IMG/VR virus record: IMGVR_UViG_3300020043_004265
Coordinates: 1-31,036 of that record
Direction: 5' to 3' (one strand)
Source: a virus
Taxonomy: Duplodnaviria > Caudoviricetes
DNA: 31,036 nt
Positions within the stretch are counted from its first letter, which is position 1; the number at the start of each line of letters is the position of its first letter. Made by a program: the position numbers and the translations under genes. This document shows positions 807 through 29,252 of this stretch, piece after piece. Under the pieces are notes generated by a model that saw nothing but the letters and a program-made list of their open reading frames with translations, made no database searches and had not been told where the DNA came from.

Positions 807-818
807 TGTATTTTATTT

Positions 819-1415
819 TTAAGATAGTGTTGTTCCTGTTACTGTGAAAGTGCGAACTGCATAATATGGTGCTGCTCCTGATTTTGCAGATGATGAACCT
901 AAACCAAAATTATCGAACCTAAATGCTTGTGTTGTTGCGCCTGGATTAGTTGTTGAAGTCCAAAAAGATAAATTAGCAGCAGTTCCATTTATTGGAGAAT
1001 AAGTAATATATCTTGAAACTGAAAAATTACAAATACTAAGCATTTCAGTTATATTTGCCATTCTCCAACCTGTTGTAAATGTTCCAATACTTAATGCTAA
1101 TGCTGTATCAATACCTGTATTCCAAATTACAGATGCTTGTGAAGTTCTTAACCAACCCAAAACCGTACTACCATCATAGGTACTCCAATCAATTACGATA
1201 TTATTTGTGTATGTCTGACCGCCTAATTCATCGGTAAAACGATTAGTATTTCCGAAAACATTATTTTCTGCCAAAACCGTAAAACTTGTATTTCGCCCTG
1301 CTTCTAAATCACCATCGTCACCCGTTCTATAAGACGTTGTTTGCCCTGTTTTCATTAGTTTTGCAGTGCTACGGCTTACTGCGACTGCAACTGCTTTAAT
1401 ATAGTTCCCTATCAT
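819..1415 (-). CDS. DUF1566/Lcl C-terminal-like (C-type-lectin fold) putative receptor-binding protein
   Basis: Motifs TGQTTSY..GDDG, WRMANITEMLSI, FWTSTT and terminal YAVR resemble DUF1566; ATGA-coupled to the fibre gene. Confidence 0.7.
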   Translation of the reverse strand: MIGNYIKAVAVAVSRSTAKLMKTGQTTSYRTGDDGDLEAGRNTSFTVLAENNVFGNTNRFTDELGGQTYTNNIVIDWSTYDGSTVLGWLRTSQASVIWNTGIDTALALSIGTFTTGWRMANITEMLSICNFSVSRYITYSPINGTAANLSFWTSTTNPGATTQAFRFDNFGLGSSSAKSGAAPYYAVRTFTVTGTTLS

Positions 1416-5068: not shown

Positions 5069-5313
5069 TACTCTTCGCTTTCTGTCTGTTCAGCTTCTGA
5101 TTTTGGTTTTTTGATTTTCTTAGCAGGTAAATCTAAGCTAAAATCCTTTAATTCCTGCATAGTATTGTCAAAATATTTGAGAAGCTGCTCAGGATATTTG
5201 CTATCCAAGTGCGCTTTGATGTATTTTTTAAGGTCATCACCTTCTAATGTACCGAGATTTTTCCCTTTGTATGGCACATTATAGTCTTTGCAATAGTCTT
5301 TAACTTTTATCAT
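5068..5313 (-). CDS. Hypothetical protein
   Basis: 81-aa ORF coupled (TAATG) to the portal. Confidence 0.75.
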   Translation of the reverse strand: MIKVKDYCKDYNVPYKGKNLGTLEGDDLKKYIKAHLDSKYPEQLLKYFDNTMQELKDFSLDLPAKKIKKPKSEAEQTESEE

Positions 5314-5326
5314 AGCTTAACATTTT

Positions 5327-5352
5327 AAAAAAGGCGGCTTTTACACCGCCTT
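5327..5352 (-). terminator. Intrinsic terminator after the tail tube gene
   Basis: AAGGCGG-TGTAAAAG-CCGCCTT followed by TTTT on the minus strand. Confidence 0.7.
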
Positions 5353-5406
5353 AGATGGATAAATACCCCCTGTTTTAACCAAAAAACCGTATGAAAAACG
5401 CTAAGA

Positions 5407-8913: not shown

Positions 8914-8984
8914 ATTAAAAAATGAATTTGCACAATTATAACATAAAAAAAATATCATTTTAGTGCAAAAAAATGTCTTTTATA

Positions 8985-9015
8985 TTTGTGTAATAAAATA
9001 TTATTACTACCTTTG
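8985..9015 (+). promoter_or_regulatory. Bacteroidetes-type promoter with an operator in the spacer
   Basis: TTTG (8985-8988), 19 nt, TACCTTTG (9008-9015); the spacer holds GTAATAAAATATTATTAC (8990-9007). Confidence 0.8.
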
Positions 9016-9044: not shown

Positions 9045-9053
9045 AACTACCAA
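9045..9053 (+). promoter_or_regulatory. AACTACC leader motif, copy 1
   Basis: AAAAACTACC-AAAA-ATG(9056). Confidence 0.75.
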
Positions 9054-9804: not shown

Positions 9805-9813
9805 AACTACCAA
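9805..9813 (+). promoter_or_regulatory. AACTACC leader motif, copy 2
   Basis: AAAACTACC-AATT-ATG(9816). Confidence 0.75.
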
Positions 9814-10180: not shown

Positions 10181-10189
10181 AACTACCAA
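10181..10189 (+). promoter_or_regulatory. AACTACC leader motif, copy 3
   Basis: AAAAAACTACC-AACA-ATG(10192). Confidence 0.75.
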
Positions 10190-10670: not shown

Positions 10671-10885
10671 CAGCAGTAGAATGGTTAATAGAAAATATTT
10701 TAAAACACGATAAATCATTTATTGAGTTTTATAATGCTGAAATTCAACAAGCCAAAGAAATGGAAAAGCAGCAGATAATAGATGCTGTAGAATGGGGTAA
10801 TCGAAAAGGATATGATGAACATAGACTTACTTGTATATTAGATGAAGATGAAGATTACTACAATGAAACCTACAAAAAACATTAA
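10667..10885 (+). CDS. Small TAVEWL-family phage protein
   Basis: MTAVEWL...QAKEMEKQQIIDA...EDYYNETY. Confidence 0.85.
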   Translation: MTAVEWLIENILKHDKSFIEFYNAEIQQAKEMEKQQIIDAVEWGNRKGYDEHRLTCILDEDEDYYNETYKKH

Positions 10886-10890
10886 CGATA

Positions 10891-10965
10891 CTTGGTTTTG
10901 GTAGTTCCAGAAGGGCAGGCCGCTGAACAAAAACTTACCTGACAGCTGGAAAGACAGCATTTTTT
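10891..10965 (+). ncRNA. Candidate structured RNA carrying the antisense loop UUUUGGUAGUU
   Basis: Intergenic. (CT)TGG-TTTTGGTAGTT-CCA(G) hairpin, CAGG/CCTG pairing, GCTG-GAAAGA-CAGC hairpin, then T6. Confidence 0.5.
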
Positions 10966-10984
10966 AACTTAAAAAACCTTTGAA

Positions 10985-11140
10985 ATGAACGAAGAAACAG
11001 AAACAGCAGTTGAGTTTTTATTCCGTATGTATATGGATAAAAAACAAAACCTCACCCTTGCAGACTTTATCAATGCCGTTGACATCGAAACTGAACAGCT
11101 CATACAGGCATCACAACAAAACTATCAATCAGAAAACTAA
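10985..11140 (+). CDS. Small TAVE-family paralogue (51 aa; absent from the ORF track)
   Basis: MNEETETAVEFLFRMY...; same leader as the 10667 gene. Confidence 0.7.
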   Translation: MNEETETAVEFLFRMYMDKKQNLTLADFINAVDIETEQLIQASQQNYQSEN

Positions 11141-11147
11141 CTACCAA
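11139..11147 (+). promoter_or_regulatory. AACTACC leader motif, copy 4
   Basis: TAACTACC-A-ATG(11147). Confidence 0.75.
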
Positions 11148-11686
11148 TGAAAGCAATCTTAATCTGTACAGCACTCGCAGCACTACTGCTGTCATTCAAA
11201 CTTGCAACACCAGCAAACCCACCATCGGGCAAACCTGCCAAACAGAAACCTGCTCACGTAGAAAAATACATTAAGAGATTTTTGAAGACTGCACAGCGTG
11301 AAGCAGACCTTTACAACATTCCTGTGTCAATAACTTTGGCACAGGGTATCATCGAAAGTAACTCGGGCCGATCAGACCTAAGCAGAAAACACAACAACCA
11401 CTTCGGAATGAAATGGCATCGCAGCAGGAAAGAAAAATACGCTGTGTTCCGTGATGATACTCCGACCGATAGGTTTGTTGTTTATCGTTCAGCTTGGTGG
11501 TCTTACCGTGACCATTCGAAGCTCTTAGTTTCTGCCCGGTACAGACACCTCACAAAACTAAAACGAACTGACTATAAAAGATGGGCAAGAGGATTGAAGA
11601 AAGCAGGATATGCTACCGCTCCGCACTATGCCACAGCACTAATCAATATTATTGAAACTTATGACCTTGACAAGTACGACAGATGA
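11147..11686 (+). CDS. Secreted GH73 (FlgJ-like) glucosaminidase/muramidase
   Basis: Signal peptide; IPVSITLAQGIIES, NNHFGMK, GYATAPHY motifs. Confidence 0.9.
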   Translation: MKAILICTALAALLLSFKLATPANPPSGKPAKQKPAHVEKYIKRFLKTAQREADLYNIPVSITLAQGIIESNSGRSDLSRKHNNHFGMKWHRSRKEKYAVFRDDTPTDRFVVYRSAWWSYRDHSKLLVSARYRHLTKLKRTDYKRWARGLKKAGYATAPHYATALINIIETYDLDKYDR

Positions 11687-12450
11687 GACCAATACAGATT
11701 GAAAAATCATTCACACAGCACAACCTGCAAAGTTTTCTAACTGAAGCACAAAAATATAAACAGCTCACCCCTGAGCAGGAGATTACAGCAACACCCGAAC
11801 AACTTGTCAAACACAATATGCTTTTTGTTGTAAGTGTCGCAAAGCAATACGGCAGCAAAGCAAGTGACCTGAAAGACTTAATCCAGGAAGGAATGATTGG
11901 ACTGATAAAGGCATCACAAAGATACGATCCATCAAGAGGCTTCAAGTTTATCTCTTATGCTGTATGGTATATTCAGCAAAGCATAATGGCATACCTTAGA
12001 AATCAGCGTAACCTTATCAGGGTATCGGAACCACAGATAATATCAAATCGGAAGATAATGGAACTGATTGACACGCATACGGAAGAGGAAATCAAAGACA
12101 AGCTGAAGATTACCGATAACGTATTCAGAAACTTTATTCATAGTCCATTTACAGAATCAATGGATGATCAATACGATGCAGATTCCGATGATTACACAAA
12201 GCAATATGTTTCTGATGATAACTTTTTGGACTACTATGAGAATAAAGATATGGCTGACCGTATCAAAACATTGATGGAAAAATTGTCATTCAAGGAGCAG
12301 CATATCATTTACCAAGTTTATCTTATGCCATTCCCGAAAACTAATCAGGAACTGGCAATGGAAATGAAGATGTCACAGCAAGGAGTGAGATACCTTCACG
12401 ATCGGGCACTCAAAAAACTTAAACTAAAAACCTCCGTTCACGGCCTGTAA
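11683..12450 (+). CDS. Sigma-70 family RNA polymerase sigma factor (RpoD/RpoS-like)
   Basis: Region 1.2 LTPEQE; region 2 NMLFVVSVAKQY and DLIQEGMIGLIKA..YDPSRGFKFISYAVW; region 4 HTH ending RALKKLK. Confidence 0.92.
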   Translation: MRPIQIEKSFTQHNLQSFLTEAQKYKQLTPEQEITATPEQLVKHNMLFVVSVAKQYGSKASDLKDLIQEGMIGLIKASQRYDPSRGFKFISYAVWYIQQSIMAYLRNQRNLIRVSEPQIISNRKIMELIDTHTEEEIKDKLKITDNVFRNFIHSPFTESMDDQYDADSDDYTKQYVSDDNFLDYYENKDMADRIKTLMEKLSFKEQHIIYQVYLMPFPKTNQELAMEMKMSQQGVRYLHDRALKKLKLKTSVHGL

Positions 12451-23427: not shown

Positions 23428-23666
23428 TTCGCTTTTGGTTTGCTGATTTTAATCTGTTTCTTCTCTGCCGGTATGGAATGCTGAAAATATTCCTTGCCTT
23501 GCTTATCCAAGATGGACTGGTCCGTGATGATGCGCTCACATATCCTGCGAGCTGCAACCAAGTTATTGAGCAGCTGCCTTGTCTGCAAACTCCATTTTTC
23601 TGTCTTATCTTCGACCTCACTAATCATCAGGTCAAGATGTGTTTTCATATCCTTAGCGTTAATCAT
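23424..23666 (-). CDS. Hypothetical protein
   Basis: 80 aa, ATGA-coupled on both sides. Confidence 0.75.
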   Translation of the reverse strand: MINAKDMKTHLDLMISEVEDKTEKWSLQTRQLLNNLVAARRICERIITDQSILDKQGKEYFQHSIPAEKKQIKISKPKAK

Positions 23667-25105
23667 AATAATATAAATTTGTTATTCTTTTTTGATATTA
23701 CAGATGTTACTGCATAGCGCATCGCATCCAAACTATGGTCAAATTCTTTTATCGCTTCATCCAATGGATTCCCATCGGCATCCTCTTTGTATCGGTAGTT
23801 CGAAAGCTCAATGGCAACATCCTTGCTTTCCTTGGTGACTACCAACTCAAACTCATTGATAGCTGATATGCCGTAGGATATACTGTCCTTGCCTTTGTCG
23901 GCCTTGTGTACGTTCAGCCTATGCTTGCCTCGAAGATGGTCAATCAAAATCGGGTCAGCAGAATCTGCAATTATCTTGCCTCTGCTCGTCTGTATCGTTC
24001 TGTTTATCTCGTTGCCTAACTCATCGATACCCATCCCTCGCTTGTATATCAGCTGCTTAATGTAAATCTTTCGGGTGAGCATATCCAACTTAATCTCAAC
24101 GAATGCCGCAGGACTGGTGCTGTAACCAAAGTCAAGTCCGTAAATCGGCTCAATGCCAATCTGCCTGTACTCAGCCTCATCAATCGCATTCCATTTCGGA
24201 TACACCAAACCACCTTCGAAAGGTTTCGGGTCTTGCTGATACATAGCTTGGAACAACCTCGGAGAATTGTCTTGAAACTTTTGCAGTTTTTCAAGGCTGT
24301 GTCTTTCGGGCCATAAAGCCTCACCGATGTTTCTCGGATCGTCTTGTCTTTTGTCCGCTGTCATCAGGATACCTGGAAGCGTTAAGACTGTCCACTCGTG
24401 TGCATCCTTCTGCTTTAAGATTCTGCCTGACAAGTCATCTTCGTGCCATCTCGTTTGAGTGATTAGGACTTGTGAGTTATTGTGCAGACGAGTAGAGAAA
24501 ACACCATTGTACCAATCCCAAACTCTTGCCCGGTATGTCATACTGTTAGCCTCAACAACATCTTTTACAGGGTCATCAATGATGCCAATGTCAACTGGTG
24601 TACCAGTAAGCGAACCACCAACACCAACGGACTTATAGAAACCAACATTTTCGACAATCTCAAAGATGTCGGCATTGCGCAGGAAAGAACCTTTGGCAGA
24701 TGTGCGGATATTGGAAGAGTTTAGCCTGGTGTTTGGGAAGACATCGATGTAAACATCATCATCCATAATGCGCTGCACATCACGGTTAAAACTTCGGCTT
24801 AAATCGGCAGAATATGAGCAACCGACAATCTTTAACTTTGGGTTTATGCCAAGCAAGTACGCAGGCAATCTTCTCGATGTCAGCTCAGACTTTCCGTGTT
24901 GAGGCGGCATAAATACCATCAGCTTTCTAATCTTGCCTTCTGCGAACTTTTGAAGGTACTCAATCAGCAGATTGTGATGCCAGGAGAACTGGTAGTCAGG
25001 TTTGGTATGTTTAACGAATCGTTTAAAATCCTTCGCTGCTATCAGTTGTCGGATCCGCTGCAAGTTCAGCAATTCGTTCAAGTTCTCTGAGTTGATCAAG
25101 GCCAA
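23663..25105 (-). CDS. terL: Terminase large subunit
   Basis: Walker A MPPQHGKS, Walker B IGIIDDP, TRWHEDD, nuclease YGLDFG, ADSA and DHSLDAMRYA; TTG start position uncertain. Confidence 0.95.
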   Translation of the reverse strand: MALINSENLNELLNLQRIRQLIAAKDFKRFVKHTKPDYQFSWHHNLLIEYLQKFAEGKIRKLMVFMPPQHGKSELTSRRLPAYLLGINPKLKIVGCSYSADLSRSFNRDVQRIMDDDVYIDVFPNTRLNSSNIRTSAKGSFLRNADIFEIVENVGFYKSVGVGGSLTGTPVDIGIIDDPVKDVVEANSMTYRARVWDWYNGVFSTRLHNNSQVLITQTRWHEDDLSGRILKQKDAHEWTVLTLPGILMTADKRQDDPRNIGEALWPERHSLEKLQKFQDNSPRLFQAMYQQDPKPFEGGLVYPKWNAIDEAEYRQIGIEPIYGLDFGYSTSPAAFVEIKLDMLTRKIYIKQLIYKRGMGIDELGNEINRTIQTSRGKIIADSADPILIDHLRGKHRLNVHKADKGKDSISYGISAINEFELVVTKESKDVAIELSNYRYKEDADGNPLDEAIKEFDHSLDAMRYAVTSVISKKNNKFILL

Positions 25106-25379
25106 GGTTTTCCAGTTTTAATGTTTGTTTTATCTCTATCATTCCACCATCTTCGCCAGTTATCTCGGTGCGGCTTAGTTTTGGTATTAGGTATTCCTGA
25201 AGCTCAAGCCAAATCTTCACTCTGTCTTTGGGTTCCATCATTTCGAGGTCTTCTTCGATATGTTCCCCAAGCTTGTTTGCTATCCTCGCCAGGAAGGTTT
25301 TTGTTTCGGCTGTGGTTTTGTTAAGGCTACCTTTCGGTCTGCCAGTTGCCATTTTGTGTCCTTTTTCAAATAATCCCAT
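25023..25379 (-). CDS. terS: Terminase small subunit
   Basis: F.KG....GRPKGSLNKTT, YLIPKL...EITGEDG; directly upstream of terL. Confidence 0.75.
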   Translation of the reverse strand: MGLFEKGHKMATGRPKGSLNKTTAETKTFLARIANKLGEHIEEDLEMMEPKDRVKIWLELQEYLIPKLSRTEITGEDGGMIEIKQTLKLENLGLDQLRELERIAELAADPTTDSSEGF

Positions 25380-25507
25380 TTATTTCCATTTTTTTAATGG
25401 TCATCTTAGCCTTATTTATCATTCTTTAGTACCTACAATCAATTATCTTTCTTTTTTGGTATCAATATACCACTTGAATAAAAAAAGTGTCTTAAATCGG
25501 CTATTTT

Positions 25508-25573
25508 TAAAATCGGGGAAGGAAACTACCAATAACCTTCCCCTGAGAGACAAACTTAAAACCTGTTTACAAA
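25508..25573 (-). ncRNA. Candidate small antisense RNA or late leader, with hairpin loop UUAUUGGUAGUUU
   Basis: Perfect 8-bp stem GGGGAAGG/CCTTCCCC (25515-25543), followed by GATTTT; TATTTTTG -7 box upstream. Ends are approximate. Confidence 0.6.
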
Positions 25574-25579
25574 GCACTG

Positions 25580-25587
25580 CAAAAATA
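25580..25587 (-). promoter_or_regulatory. Bacteroidetes -7 promoter box
   Basis: TATTTTTG matches TAnnTTTG; no clear -33 box. Confidence 0.5.
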
Positions 25588-25612
25588 TGTTTTTTTTTCG
25601 AAAAAGTGAAGT

Positions 25613-25831
25613 GTTACAAGCGTTACATTTTTGTTACATCAGAACACCCACTAATACTATATTGTAACAATGTAACAGATGTAACAGGTATTATGTATGT
25701 ATATATAATAGTATAATAGTGTTCCTCATAATGAATGTATTTTCTCGTTACAAGCGTTACATTGTTACACGAGTTGATAATCAATAAGTTATCCGTATCA
25801 AAATTGTAACACATTCAAAAAGCTGTTACAA
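25613..25831. repeat. Eleven GTTACA/TGTAAC hexamers, putative replication origin (or packaging site)
   Basis: GTTACA at 25613, 25622, 25633, 25747, 25756, 25764, 25825; TGTAAC at 25663, 25671, 25680, 25805; AT-rich core. Confidence 0.8.
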
Positions 25832-25835
25832 GGGC

Positions 25836-25867
25836 AAAAAAAAGAGTGCCCCGACATAAGGCACTCT
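25836..25867 (-). terminator. Intrinsic terminator of the recombination operon
   Basis: AGAGTGCC-TTATGTCGG-GGCACTCT followed by T7. Confidence 0.85.
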
Positions 25868-25886
25868 AAAACAAACTATTAACACA

Positions 25887-26414
25887 CTAAACTTGGTCGT
25901 TAAAATCGGATTTTTTAAGTAACGAGTTGTAATCCATCGTTGTTTTTCGGCTCACATCACGTCCGAAAATCTTACCAAATTTCTCCGCTGCGTCTTTTAT
26001 TGCGTAACTTTCAGCAGCGGGTGCAGCCTTCTGAACTCCATCCGTTTTAACTGAGTTCCAATCAGTTGCACCACTTCCCTTGTCTGTTTGTATCGGAGCA
26101 GCACCAATACCATCTTGCCATTCTGTTTCTCCAGTAATTGGGTTTGTTACAAATAGTCTAACCGTGACGCAGACGCTGTTTGCGAGGATTTGAACGGATT
26201 TTACCTCAACCGACCATTTTGTAAAAATACGTGTTAAAAGATACTCAATTTTCTCAATTGGCATATAATTATACCCCTTAATCATCGGATGTGTTACAAG
26301 CCAAGCCTTAGGAGGATCTTGATTTAGCAGTACAGTTAAGGCATTTTGTTTAAGTGATTCCTGTGTGTCTGTGATTAGATCCTGGAATGTTGGAAGTTTT
26401 GTGATGTTTGACAT
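25887..26414 (-). CDS. Rad52/Sak-like single-strand annealing protein
   Basis: YMPIEKIEYLLTRIF..W, AAESYAIKDAAEKFG..FGRD; adjacent to an exonuclease. Confidence 0.75.
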   Translation of the reverse strand: MSNITKLPTFQDLITDTQESLKQNALTVLLNQDPPKAWLVTHPMIKGYNYMPIEKIEYLLTRIFTKWSVEVKSVQILANSVCVTVRLFVTNPITGETEWQDGIGAAPIQTDKGSGATDWNSVKTDGVQKAAPAAESYAIKDAAEKFGKIFGRDVSRKTTMDYNSLLKKSDFNDQV

Positions 26415-26416
26415 TG

Positions 26417-26424
26417 TGGTAGTT
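26417..26424 (-). promoter_or_regulatory. AACTACC leader motif, copy 5
   Basis: AAATAACTACC-ACA-ATG(26414). Confidence 0.7.
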
Positions 26425-27199: not shown

Positions 27200-27207
27200 T
27201 GGTAGTT
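27199..27207 (-). promoter_or_regulatory. AACTACC leader motif, copy 6
   Basis: AAAAAATAACTACC-A-ATG(27199). Confidence 0.75.
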
Positions 27208-27236: not shown

Positions 27237-27264
27237 CAAAGATAATAAAATATTATTACATTTG
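27237..27264. promoter_or_regulatory. Divergent -7 boxes sharing an operator
   Basis: TATCTTTG (minus, 27244-27237), TAATAAAATATTATTAC (27243-27259), TACATTTG (plus, 27257-27264). Confidence 0.75.
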
Positions 27265-27303: not shown

Positions 27304-27516
27304 ATGAAGACTTACCAAAAAATCAAGGAACGAGCAGATCGTGCAGGCATCAGCATCCGTGAGTTGTGCCGCAGAACAGGCATTCACAAACAGACATTGG
27401 ACAAATGGAGCAGAGTTGAACCGCAGACATTGATGTATTTAGAGCGCATAAATGACGAGCTTGGAAAACAAGAGGATGCTAACCTTAAAAAATATCTCGA
27501 TGAGCGTAAATCTTAG
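27304..27516 (+). CDS. Cro/CI-like HTH regulator
   Basis: GISIRELCRRTGIHKQTLDKW; first gene after the operator. Confidence 0.85.
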   Translation: MKTYQKIKERADRAGISIRELCRRTGIHKQTLDKWSRVEPQTLMYLERINDELGKQEDANLKKYLDERKS

Positions 27517-29188: not shown

Positions 29189-29215
29189 GTAATAAAATAT
29201 TATTACTTACCTTTA
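29189..29215 (+). promoter_or_regulatory. Operator copy 3 with a near-consensus -7 box
   Basis: GTAATAAAATATTATTAC (29189-29206), TACCTTTA (29208-29215). Confidence 0.75.
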
Positions 29216-29243: not shown

Positions 29244-29252
29244 AACTACCAA
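29244..29252 (+). promoter_or_regulatory. AACTACC leader motif, copy 7
   Basis: AAAACTACC-AAAGTT-ATG(29257). Confidence 0.75.

Follow-up and report, generated by a model that had tools for sequence, protein, structure and literature searches.

Upstream of the probable small terminase gene of a phage genome lies a hairpin whose 13-nt loop is the complement of a tag carried by seven early leaders. Does this hairpin belong to an antisense RNA and, if so, which genes would it address, and when? The DNA analysed, referred to here as the window, comprises an entire virus record (31,036 nt, 86% complete). Its genes include terL, a portal, a Clp-type protease, a DUF3799 exonuclease, a Rad52-like protein, a helicase, an HTH regulator and a sigma-70-like factor. 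We infer a Bacteroidota host, because TAnnTTTG boxes precede the operon heads and the A-rich leaders lack Shine-Dalgarno motifs. No cultured close relative was found, the best terL match being 51% over 57-61% of the protein. A tyrosine integrase (PF00589) was found in none of five records, three of them complete, and with the integrase absent a classical lysogen is not indicated.

Anatomy and setting of the hairpin unit

The hairpin had been predicted to carry its own promoter box upstream of terS, and this was borne out: on the minus strand a box (25587-25580) is followed by a spacer of 36 nt, the stem-loop (25543-25515) and GAUUUU (Table 1). The position upstream of terS was likewise upheld. 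The name terS itself is given by position, the product having no Pfam match and matching one PHROG of unknown function. In the accessible text of PMC6847099, the Bacteroidota promoter consensus TAHHTTTG occupies positions -12 to -5; because the box was taken at these positions, the RNA is predicted to start near 25575 and to be 61-68 nt (about 65 nt) long. The 3' arm of the stem and GAUUUU are likely to form the RNA 3' end or a leaky terminator. The window unit, with its weak U-run, was not called by a terminator scan; clear U-runs stand directly after the stem in relatives L008, L010, L012, L017-L022 and L106, and weak ones in the window's group. The predicted 5' tail could also pair with the first codons of 27199 and the start of the sigma gene 11683.

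Perfect 8-bp stems with at least six G-C pairs and a 4-16-nt loop occur just twice in the whole window. Taken alone, the folding energy of the 68-nt minus strand is unremarkable (z = -1.5, with 20 of 200 shuffles as good), the plus strand giving z = -2.6. Two to three weak pairs close part of the loop in the folding model. The cofold model showed the tail site only, being unable to represent loop pairing. Rfam searches gave no match at gathering score in the window and nothing at 10800-11200; three unrelated matches with E values of 4-7 were returned for 25300-25950. A 162-aa plus-strand ORF (25228-25716) was considered as a coding rival and rejected, as its frame is not kept open in relatives, and no conserved open frame crosses the hairpin on either strand in 10 sequences.

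Table 1 Coordinates of the hairpin unit, the tagged early leaders and neighbouring features of the window
Feature	Position	Strand	Basis or remark
Promoter -7 box TATTTTTG, preceded by ACA	25580..25587	-	Bacteroidota TAHHTTTG type, exact fit
Predicted single-stranded 5' tail	25544..25575	-	Poorly conserved; possible second pairing site
Stem 5' arm, 8 bp	25536..25543	-	Sequence and alignment
13-nt loop, complement of early-leader tag AACTACCA	25523..25535	-	Sequence
Stem 3' arm (25515-25522) and weak U-run GAUUUU (25509-25514)	25509..25522	-	Sequence
Separate conserved motif between hairpin and terS	25483..25496	-	Also before terS in sister family without hairpin there
Probable small terminase (terS)	25023..25379	-	By position; 136 nt downstream of hairpin
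terL, after terS	23663-25105		Pfam Terminase_6N and Terminase_3C
Intrinsic terminator of recombination operon	25843..25867	-	Terminator scan
Capsid-operon box, ACA-TWTTTTTG-CA context	8966..8973	-	Window, G002, G004, G005
Phage sigma-70-like factor	11683..12450	+	Candidate reader of late-type box (inferred)
Tag before 9056, first gene of an early operon	9045..9052	+	10-nt longest pairing run
Tag before gene 9816	9805..9812	+	11-nt longest pairing run
Tag before gene 10192	10181..10188	+	10-nt longest pairing run
Tag before glucosaminidase gene 11147	11139..11146	+	12 nt, one G.U, across AUG
Tag before 29257, first gene of HNH / VRR-NUC operon	29244..29251	+	10-nt run
Tag before exonuclease VIII-like (DUF3799) gene 27199	27200..27207	-	12 nt, one G.U, across AUG
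Tag before Rad52-like recombinase gene 26414	26417..26424	-	8-nt longest pairing run

The terminator of the recombination operon would shield the hairpin unit from transcription coming from upstream. Between this terminator and the hairpin's box (25600-25830) lies an AT-rich core surrounded by arrayed GTTACA/TGTAAC inverted repeats; the arrangement appears origin-like, and its repeat word varies by lineage, being of the CCTTAA type in L018-L022 and of the GTACAC type in L017.

The hairpin's box and the capsid-operon box have the common context ACA-TWTTTTTG-CA in the window, G002, G004 and G005 (four of the four genomes holding both boxes). The sigma factor is present in G002, G004 and G005, and was not found in G001 or the partial record G003; in G001 the unit has a different box and there is no sigma match. 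A late-type promoter with a feedback loop is suggested because the box context matches the capsid operon and a sigma factor is encoded in these genomes, the timing being read solely from the box common to the capsid operon. The hairpin's box also fits the host housekeeping consensus. The early boxes (9008, 27244, 27257 and 29208) are preceded by a palindromic AT-rich element that the hairpin's box lacks. This element, at 8990-9007, in the 27245-27256 region and at 29190-29207, is conserved in G002, G004 and G005, and is a candidate operator of the HTH protein encoded at 27304-27516.

The separate motif between the hairpin and terS may be a terS promoter element or a packaging site. Because it precedes terS also where the hairpin is missing, terS need not depend on the hairpin's promoter. 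The motif and a second stretch at 25462-25468, both on the minus strand, are found in one copy each in about 100 loci of both families, many of them redundant. The original prediction offered two readings of the transcript, a free sRNA or the 5' leader of a late transcript; the second is weakened by the U-runs that follow the stem in relatives and by the separate motif before terS.

The early-leader tag and its pairing with the predicted RNA

The tag AACTACCA occurs 11 times in the window, compared with 0.9 +/- 1.0 in 100 shuffles (largest 4). Seven copies lie just before an ATG on the coding strand, one is that of the hairpin, and three are elsewhere (5919, 10899 and 12858). With early and late classes assigned by operon layout, the tag precedes 7/18 early and 0/26 late start codons (Fisher p = 0.0008). 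It is carried by seven of the nine early genes with a free-standing leader, the exceptions being the HTH regulator 27304 and gene 10985, and by none of the nine early genes that overlap the preceding stop. The tagged leaders are spread over four operons at 0.9-16.5 kb from the hairpin, and the tag is always in mRNA sense, including before internal genes that have no promoter. The stop of the tagged glucosaminidase gene 11147 overlaps the start of the sigma-factor gene. A longest-run count agreed with the predicted loop pairing of 10-12 nt with six leaders and 8 nt with 26414, and with pairing over the AUG at 11147 and 27199 (12 nt each, with one G-U). A 99-nt gap in an early operon (10886-10984) holds, on the mRNA strand, a second antisense copy of the tag at 10899-10906, as well as a short element near 10940 that is GC-rich and absent from G001-G005; neither a stable fold nor an Rfam match was found in this gap.

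Pairing was compared with composition-matched shuffles in which tail and loop were shuffled and the stem was kept. For promoter-first and recombination genes, the observed mean was reached by 0/150 shuffles for the window, 0/150 for L010, 1/96 for L022 and 5/150 for L019. When the best three targets among all genes were used, the observed value was reached by 0/38 shuffles (window) and 0/62 (L010). The predicted cognate RNAs favoured early over late leaders in four of four genomes (p = 0.010, 0.005, 0.034 and 0.049). On the distant genome G001 the RNAs of the window, L012 and L010 did not favour early leaders (p > 0.5), and neither did the four distant RNAs on the window genome. Target specificity is not clean, as some non-cognate RNA-genome pairs equal or beat the cognate ones. 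On G003 the window RNA (p = 0.004) told early and late genes apart more clearly than did the RNA of G003 itself, and on G002 the L022 and L019 RNAs reached p = 0.03 and 0.02. On window gene 11147 the L019 RNA scored -14.1, compared with -12.2 for the window's own RNA, these energies coming from a custom approximate duplex-plus-opening script that ignores the strain of 10-12 pairs inside a 13-nt loop. The late gene 21556 ranks fourth among the targets of the window RNA.

A de novo box-plus-hairpin scan found 24 distinct units in 232 loci. In a longest-run test most cognate units, including those of G002-G005 and G001, were not significant (p = 0.18-0.43), and L002 gave p = 0.015; the background pool of this test contained window-clade leaders, was judged contaminated and was replaced by shuffles (two new and two known units).

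Conservation, strand and variation among relatives

The hairpin unit is a real, conserved element. Among 25 terL loci, 14 have terL at 92% or more and 13 of these hold upstream DNA; box and hairpin are present in all 13 of these viral contigs, hairpin versions with a G.U pair being read by eye in this count. Five further metagenome contigs carry the unit (L092, L093, L095, L096 and L097). At L095:300-600, in a 97% relative, a foreign gene is inserted between the unit and terS. The unit is absent from this site in relatives at 71-73% terL identity (L014-L016 and L098-L100), in the 61-66% group L033-L035 with L052, and in the 55-59% group.

In an alignment of 10 sequences, 27-29 columns of the hairpin are identical in eight of nine relatives. 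The promoter box is identical at 13/13 columns in eight of nine aligned relatives and at 11/13 in L010. The 5' tail drifts, with 11/35 columns identical in L008, L009 and L012. Over 221 nt, a relative from run X1 differs by 21 substitutions and 7 indels, none of them in the hairpin. All 80 stem cells of the 10 aligned sequences are paired; two pairs are altered on both sides, both in L010, and L002 has one added A-U pair. Stem covariation with a conserved loop, which the original prediction had proposed as a check, is seen in these paired cells, in the two double changes and in a hairpin steadier than its tail.

Internal G.U pairs on the minus strand are present in L093, L008, L012 and the distant units, and no A.C pairs were seen, the stems for this count being delimited on the minus strand. 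Because of these G.U pairs, the box and the U-runs of relatives, the unit appears to be a minus-strand RNA and not a plus-strand decoy or DNA structure, and the evidence points to the minus strand as the transcribed one. The suggestion that a plus-strand loop shows the sense motif to a protein found no support here. Repeated sense copies in loops, as in CsrB-type decoys, were not found; there is one copy, antisense on the marked strand. Five public runs share words with the unit (word share 0.05-0.21). No transcript of the unit was seen in the four that were inspected, all of which gave contigs of relatives; in run X3, the only one that is truly RNA, a relative is represented by a 234-nt contig that fits both flanks and has 94 other letters in place of the unit.

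The idea was to be abandoned if the loop varied independently of the leaders; in L010 loop and leaders change together. L010 is record G003 (20.4 kb, 51% complete), in which AACTACCA precedes no start codon in 20.4 kb. The leaders of its orthologous exonuclease and Rad52 genes have lost one C and have the sequences ACTACA and ACTACT. The RNA has lost the matching G (it is without GG), and GUAGUUU is present once in the loop and once in the tail. When 30 genes were ranked as targets of this RNA, the top four were early genes, with predicted pairing that spans the AUG and energies of -9.7 to -16.4 kcal/mol; the 5' tail is the main pairing site in L010. As L010 and L011 are identical here, loop-leader covariation among the close relatives amounts to one evolutionary event.

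In L017-L020, L022, L101 and L105-L107, at 65-69% terL identity, the hairpin site is occupied by a box, a tail rich in U and a terminator hairpin. Position and layout of these distant units are as in the window, the sequence is unrelated, and they are at most putative homologues of the window unit. In L022 the tail complements the leader of the genome's own first recombination gene perfectly over 13 nt (rank 1/54), and the L019 loop has an 8-nt match directly before the AUG of its own first divergent gene. For the first recombination gene of five genomes, the genome's own RNA was best in three and an RNA of the close group in two. Units are also present in L017, L101, L106, L107 and L093, with too little upstream DNA for leader comparison.

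The sister family, collected as 80 loci through the Rad52-like gene, has no such unit between repeats and terS among the loci listed. A DUF3799 scan and two pattern scans returned almost only known contigs; L342 and L345 are promoters leading into genes. In sister-family loci L263-L335, a box and two hairpins with mutually complementary loops lie downstream of the Rad52-like gene (for example L269:6710-6850). Among the matches listed, these loops co-vary in several variant pairs and the hairpin pairs stand before variable genes; their layout, among the same matches, resembles that of c4 or P4 immunity. A terminator hairpin behind ssb in L320 (about 810-900, minus strand) has a loop that complements AACTTCAAAA in two early leaders and a tail that matches the Rad52 leader; 2/100 shuffles reach its pairing, and L320 is a possible second example, in the sister family. 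A look-alike in L122 (about 5310-5400, minus strand), whose loop matches two gene starts with one bulge, was rejected, as 29/59 shuffles were equal. At L290:9941-10000, L311:11815-11875 and L266:10930-10990, a box, a short RNA and a terminator lie upstream of origin-like repeats, and no convincing match of these three RNAs to leaders was found.

Proposed function, rival explanations and known systems

On balance, the unit probably encodes a trans-acting antisense RNA of about 65 nt, with the hairpin as its 3' half, that would repress the tagged early genes toward the virion phase. The RNA would be made from its own minus-strand promoter, and its loop, with assistance from the 5' tail, would act in trans by pairing with the tag at seven early starts. 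Pairing would occlude the start region and block translation as the phage turns to virion making, and the nine early genes that overlap a preceding stop, the sigma factor included, would be silenced through translational coupling. Negative feedback would result, the early sigma factor acting on the late-type promoter, this promoter yielding the RNA, and the RNA turning early translation off. Repression is favoured because, according to PMC6847099, translation initiation in Bacteroidota relies on A-rich start regions that are left unpaired instead of on Shine-Dalgarno pairing, and because several sites cover the AUG. Of the sRNA originally proposed, the minus strand and the leader pairing are supported by conservation and by stem and leader covariation; the RNA itself is predicted. 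A broader proposal, put forward tentatively and with some doubt, is an RNA-only early-to-late switch by a private tag code, in which phages of hosts that ignore Shine-Dalgarno sequences would mark the start of almost all early translation units with a short word of their own, a single late RNA would silence the whole early programme, the phage sigma factor with it, and tag and RNA would be rewritten together from lineage to lineage.

The same base-pairing repressor might instead be made by the host polymerase from the start of infection, as a buffer or threshold on early proteins or as a carrier-state or superinfection brake. All the pairing evidence fits this equally, the box fits TAHHTTTG exactly and lacks the operator-like palindrome, and G001 has the unit with no sigma match. 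We nevertheless regard it as unlikely, given the context ACA-TWTTTTTG-CA common to the capsid operon in four of four genomes holding both boxes and, for its carrier or lysogen side, the lack of a tyrosine integrase in five records. Improbable, too, is an attenuator, in which the hairpin would terminate the terS-terL leader and early mRNAs pairing with the loop would set read-through into the packaging genes, regulation running in reverse, much as P4 CI acts on termination. Triggers of this kind need no start codon, yet seven of the ten non-hairpin tag copies sit at one; pairing in L010 spans the AUG, the separate motif precedes terS also in phages without the hairpin there, and in L095 a foreign gene separates unit and terS. 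Promoter, short RNA and hairpin do stand directly before terS in every relative with the unit, the U-run is weak in the window's group, and the symmetry of pairing means that its direction is not readable from sequence.

It is very unlikely that the RNA pairs with the early leaders and activates or stabilises them, by opening the start region or protecting from nucleases: two window sites and the four best sites of L010 cover the AUG, the A-rich leaders have little structure to open, and all pairing sites fall inside the ribosome footprint. On the side of activation, the AUG lies 2-5 nt beyond the end of four of the seven sites, and positive phage sRNAs are known, such as PreS (PMC12197685, as far as its accessible text goes). 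Some pairing is expected between A/C-rich leaders and U/G-rich terminator regions, the folding z-score is weak, and the L122 look-alike was no better than shuffles (29/59); the hairpin could on these grounds be an ordinary terminator, or a relic of an inverted leader, with incidental complementarity. There is little chance of this, considering that composition-matched shuffles fall short of the observed pairing, that the loop is better conserved than the tail, and that RNA and leaders change together in L010. A leader-binding protein might instead be offered the sense motif by a plus-strand decoy RNA, or by an operator or cruciform in the DNA; the symmetric stem of the window and the better plus-strand z-score (-2.6) would agree with this reading. 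We judge it extremely unlikely: promoter box and U-runs are on the minus strand, the internal G.U pairs of relatives would become A.C mismatches on the plus strand or in DNA, the matching stretch of L010, L022 and L019 is bulged, falls mostly within the tail and extends into codons, and the leader tags are always in mRNA sense, also before promoterless internal genes.

If the RNA-only switch is true, the unit would belong to a class of anti-leader RNAs of Bacteroidota phages, widespread and so far undescribed, in which each lineage has its own code, and would be a post-transcriptional answer to early-gene shut-off in small phages. Phage antisense RNAs in the literature surveyed address one regulator or host genes; the RNA proposed here would address a whole temporal class through a tag. 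It would show a route by which a phage may control initiation in Bacteroidota without Shine-Dalgarno pairing. Cognate and non-cognate combinations occur naturally among the window, L010, L022 and L019, and these might also supply orthogonal translational repressors for use in Flavobacterium and Bacteroides. In a search of the literature available without subscription, neither this element nor a phage RNA that matches a tag shared by many early leaders was found described. A related motif could be among the 3,161 candidate RNAs in the supplements of PMC8040213, or in those of the preprint 10.64898/2026.09.22.753630, both of which lay outside that search. The whole text of PMC12197685 and its supplement were searched by term, and the 3,105-character supplement has no mention of Flavobacter, Bacteroid or terminase.

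Two features of trans-acting sRNAs are seen here: a conserved seed complementary to the start regions of several mRNAs, and seed-target covariation (one event in L010 plus the cognate preference of L022 and L019, with exceptions). The unit is intergenic and pairs over 8-12 nt, without the long perfect complementarity of cis-antisense RNAs. Sar and OOP are cis-encoded opposite their single target. The lambda pR'-tR' 6S unit has the layout of promoter, short RNA and terminator, with antitermination as its target, and we know of no leader tag for it. The phage RNAs P22 sar, lambda OOP and aQ each repress a regulator, at the level of translation or decay, and influence the developmental choice (PMC12197685). 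According to the same source aQ has a single target and is encoded opposite to it, whereas the window RNA would be trans-encoded and address many genes through a shared tag. IsrK of Gifsy-1 also combines promoter, short RNA and terminator before genes, with possible read-through; unlike the proposed window RNA, it activates its own read-through mRNA (PMC4825925, accessible text).

The CI RNA of satellite P4 is likewise a short RNA that damps replication genes via short complementary sites, and is processed from the transcript it controls, with termination at seqA/seqC in the lysogen (PMC4825925, accessible text). The window unit, in contrast, has its own box and has its sites at start codons of remote genes, and the integrase search gave no match. 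The flanking sites of P4 CI have no counterpart, the only copy of AACTACCA within 25300-26400 being that of the hairpin. The c4 antisense RNA, phage-encoded like the proposed RNA, acts in trans on the phage's own mRNA by short loop pairing, on its own immunity operon. The c4 RNA of P1/P7 is listed as RF01695 in PMC2864571. It is a multi-stem RNase P substrate (PMC5499578), whereas the window unit has one stable stem, does not match the c4 Rfam model RF01695, and would address seven leaders in four operons with Bacteroidota-type host signals. By this comparison, the element appears to work like the c4- and CI-type phage antisense RNAs, without being a member of either.
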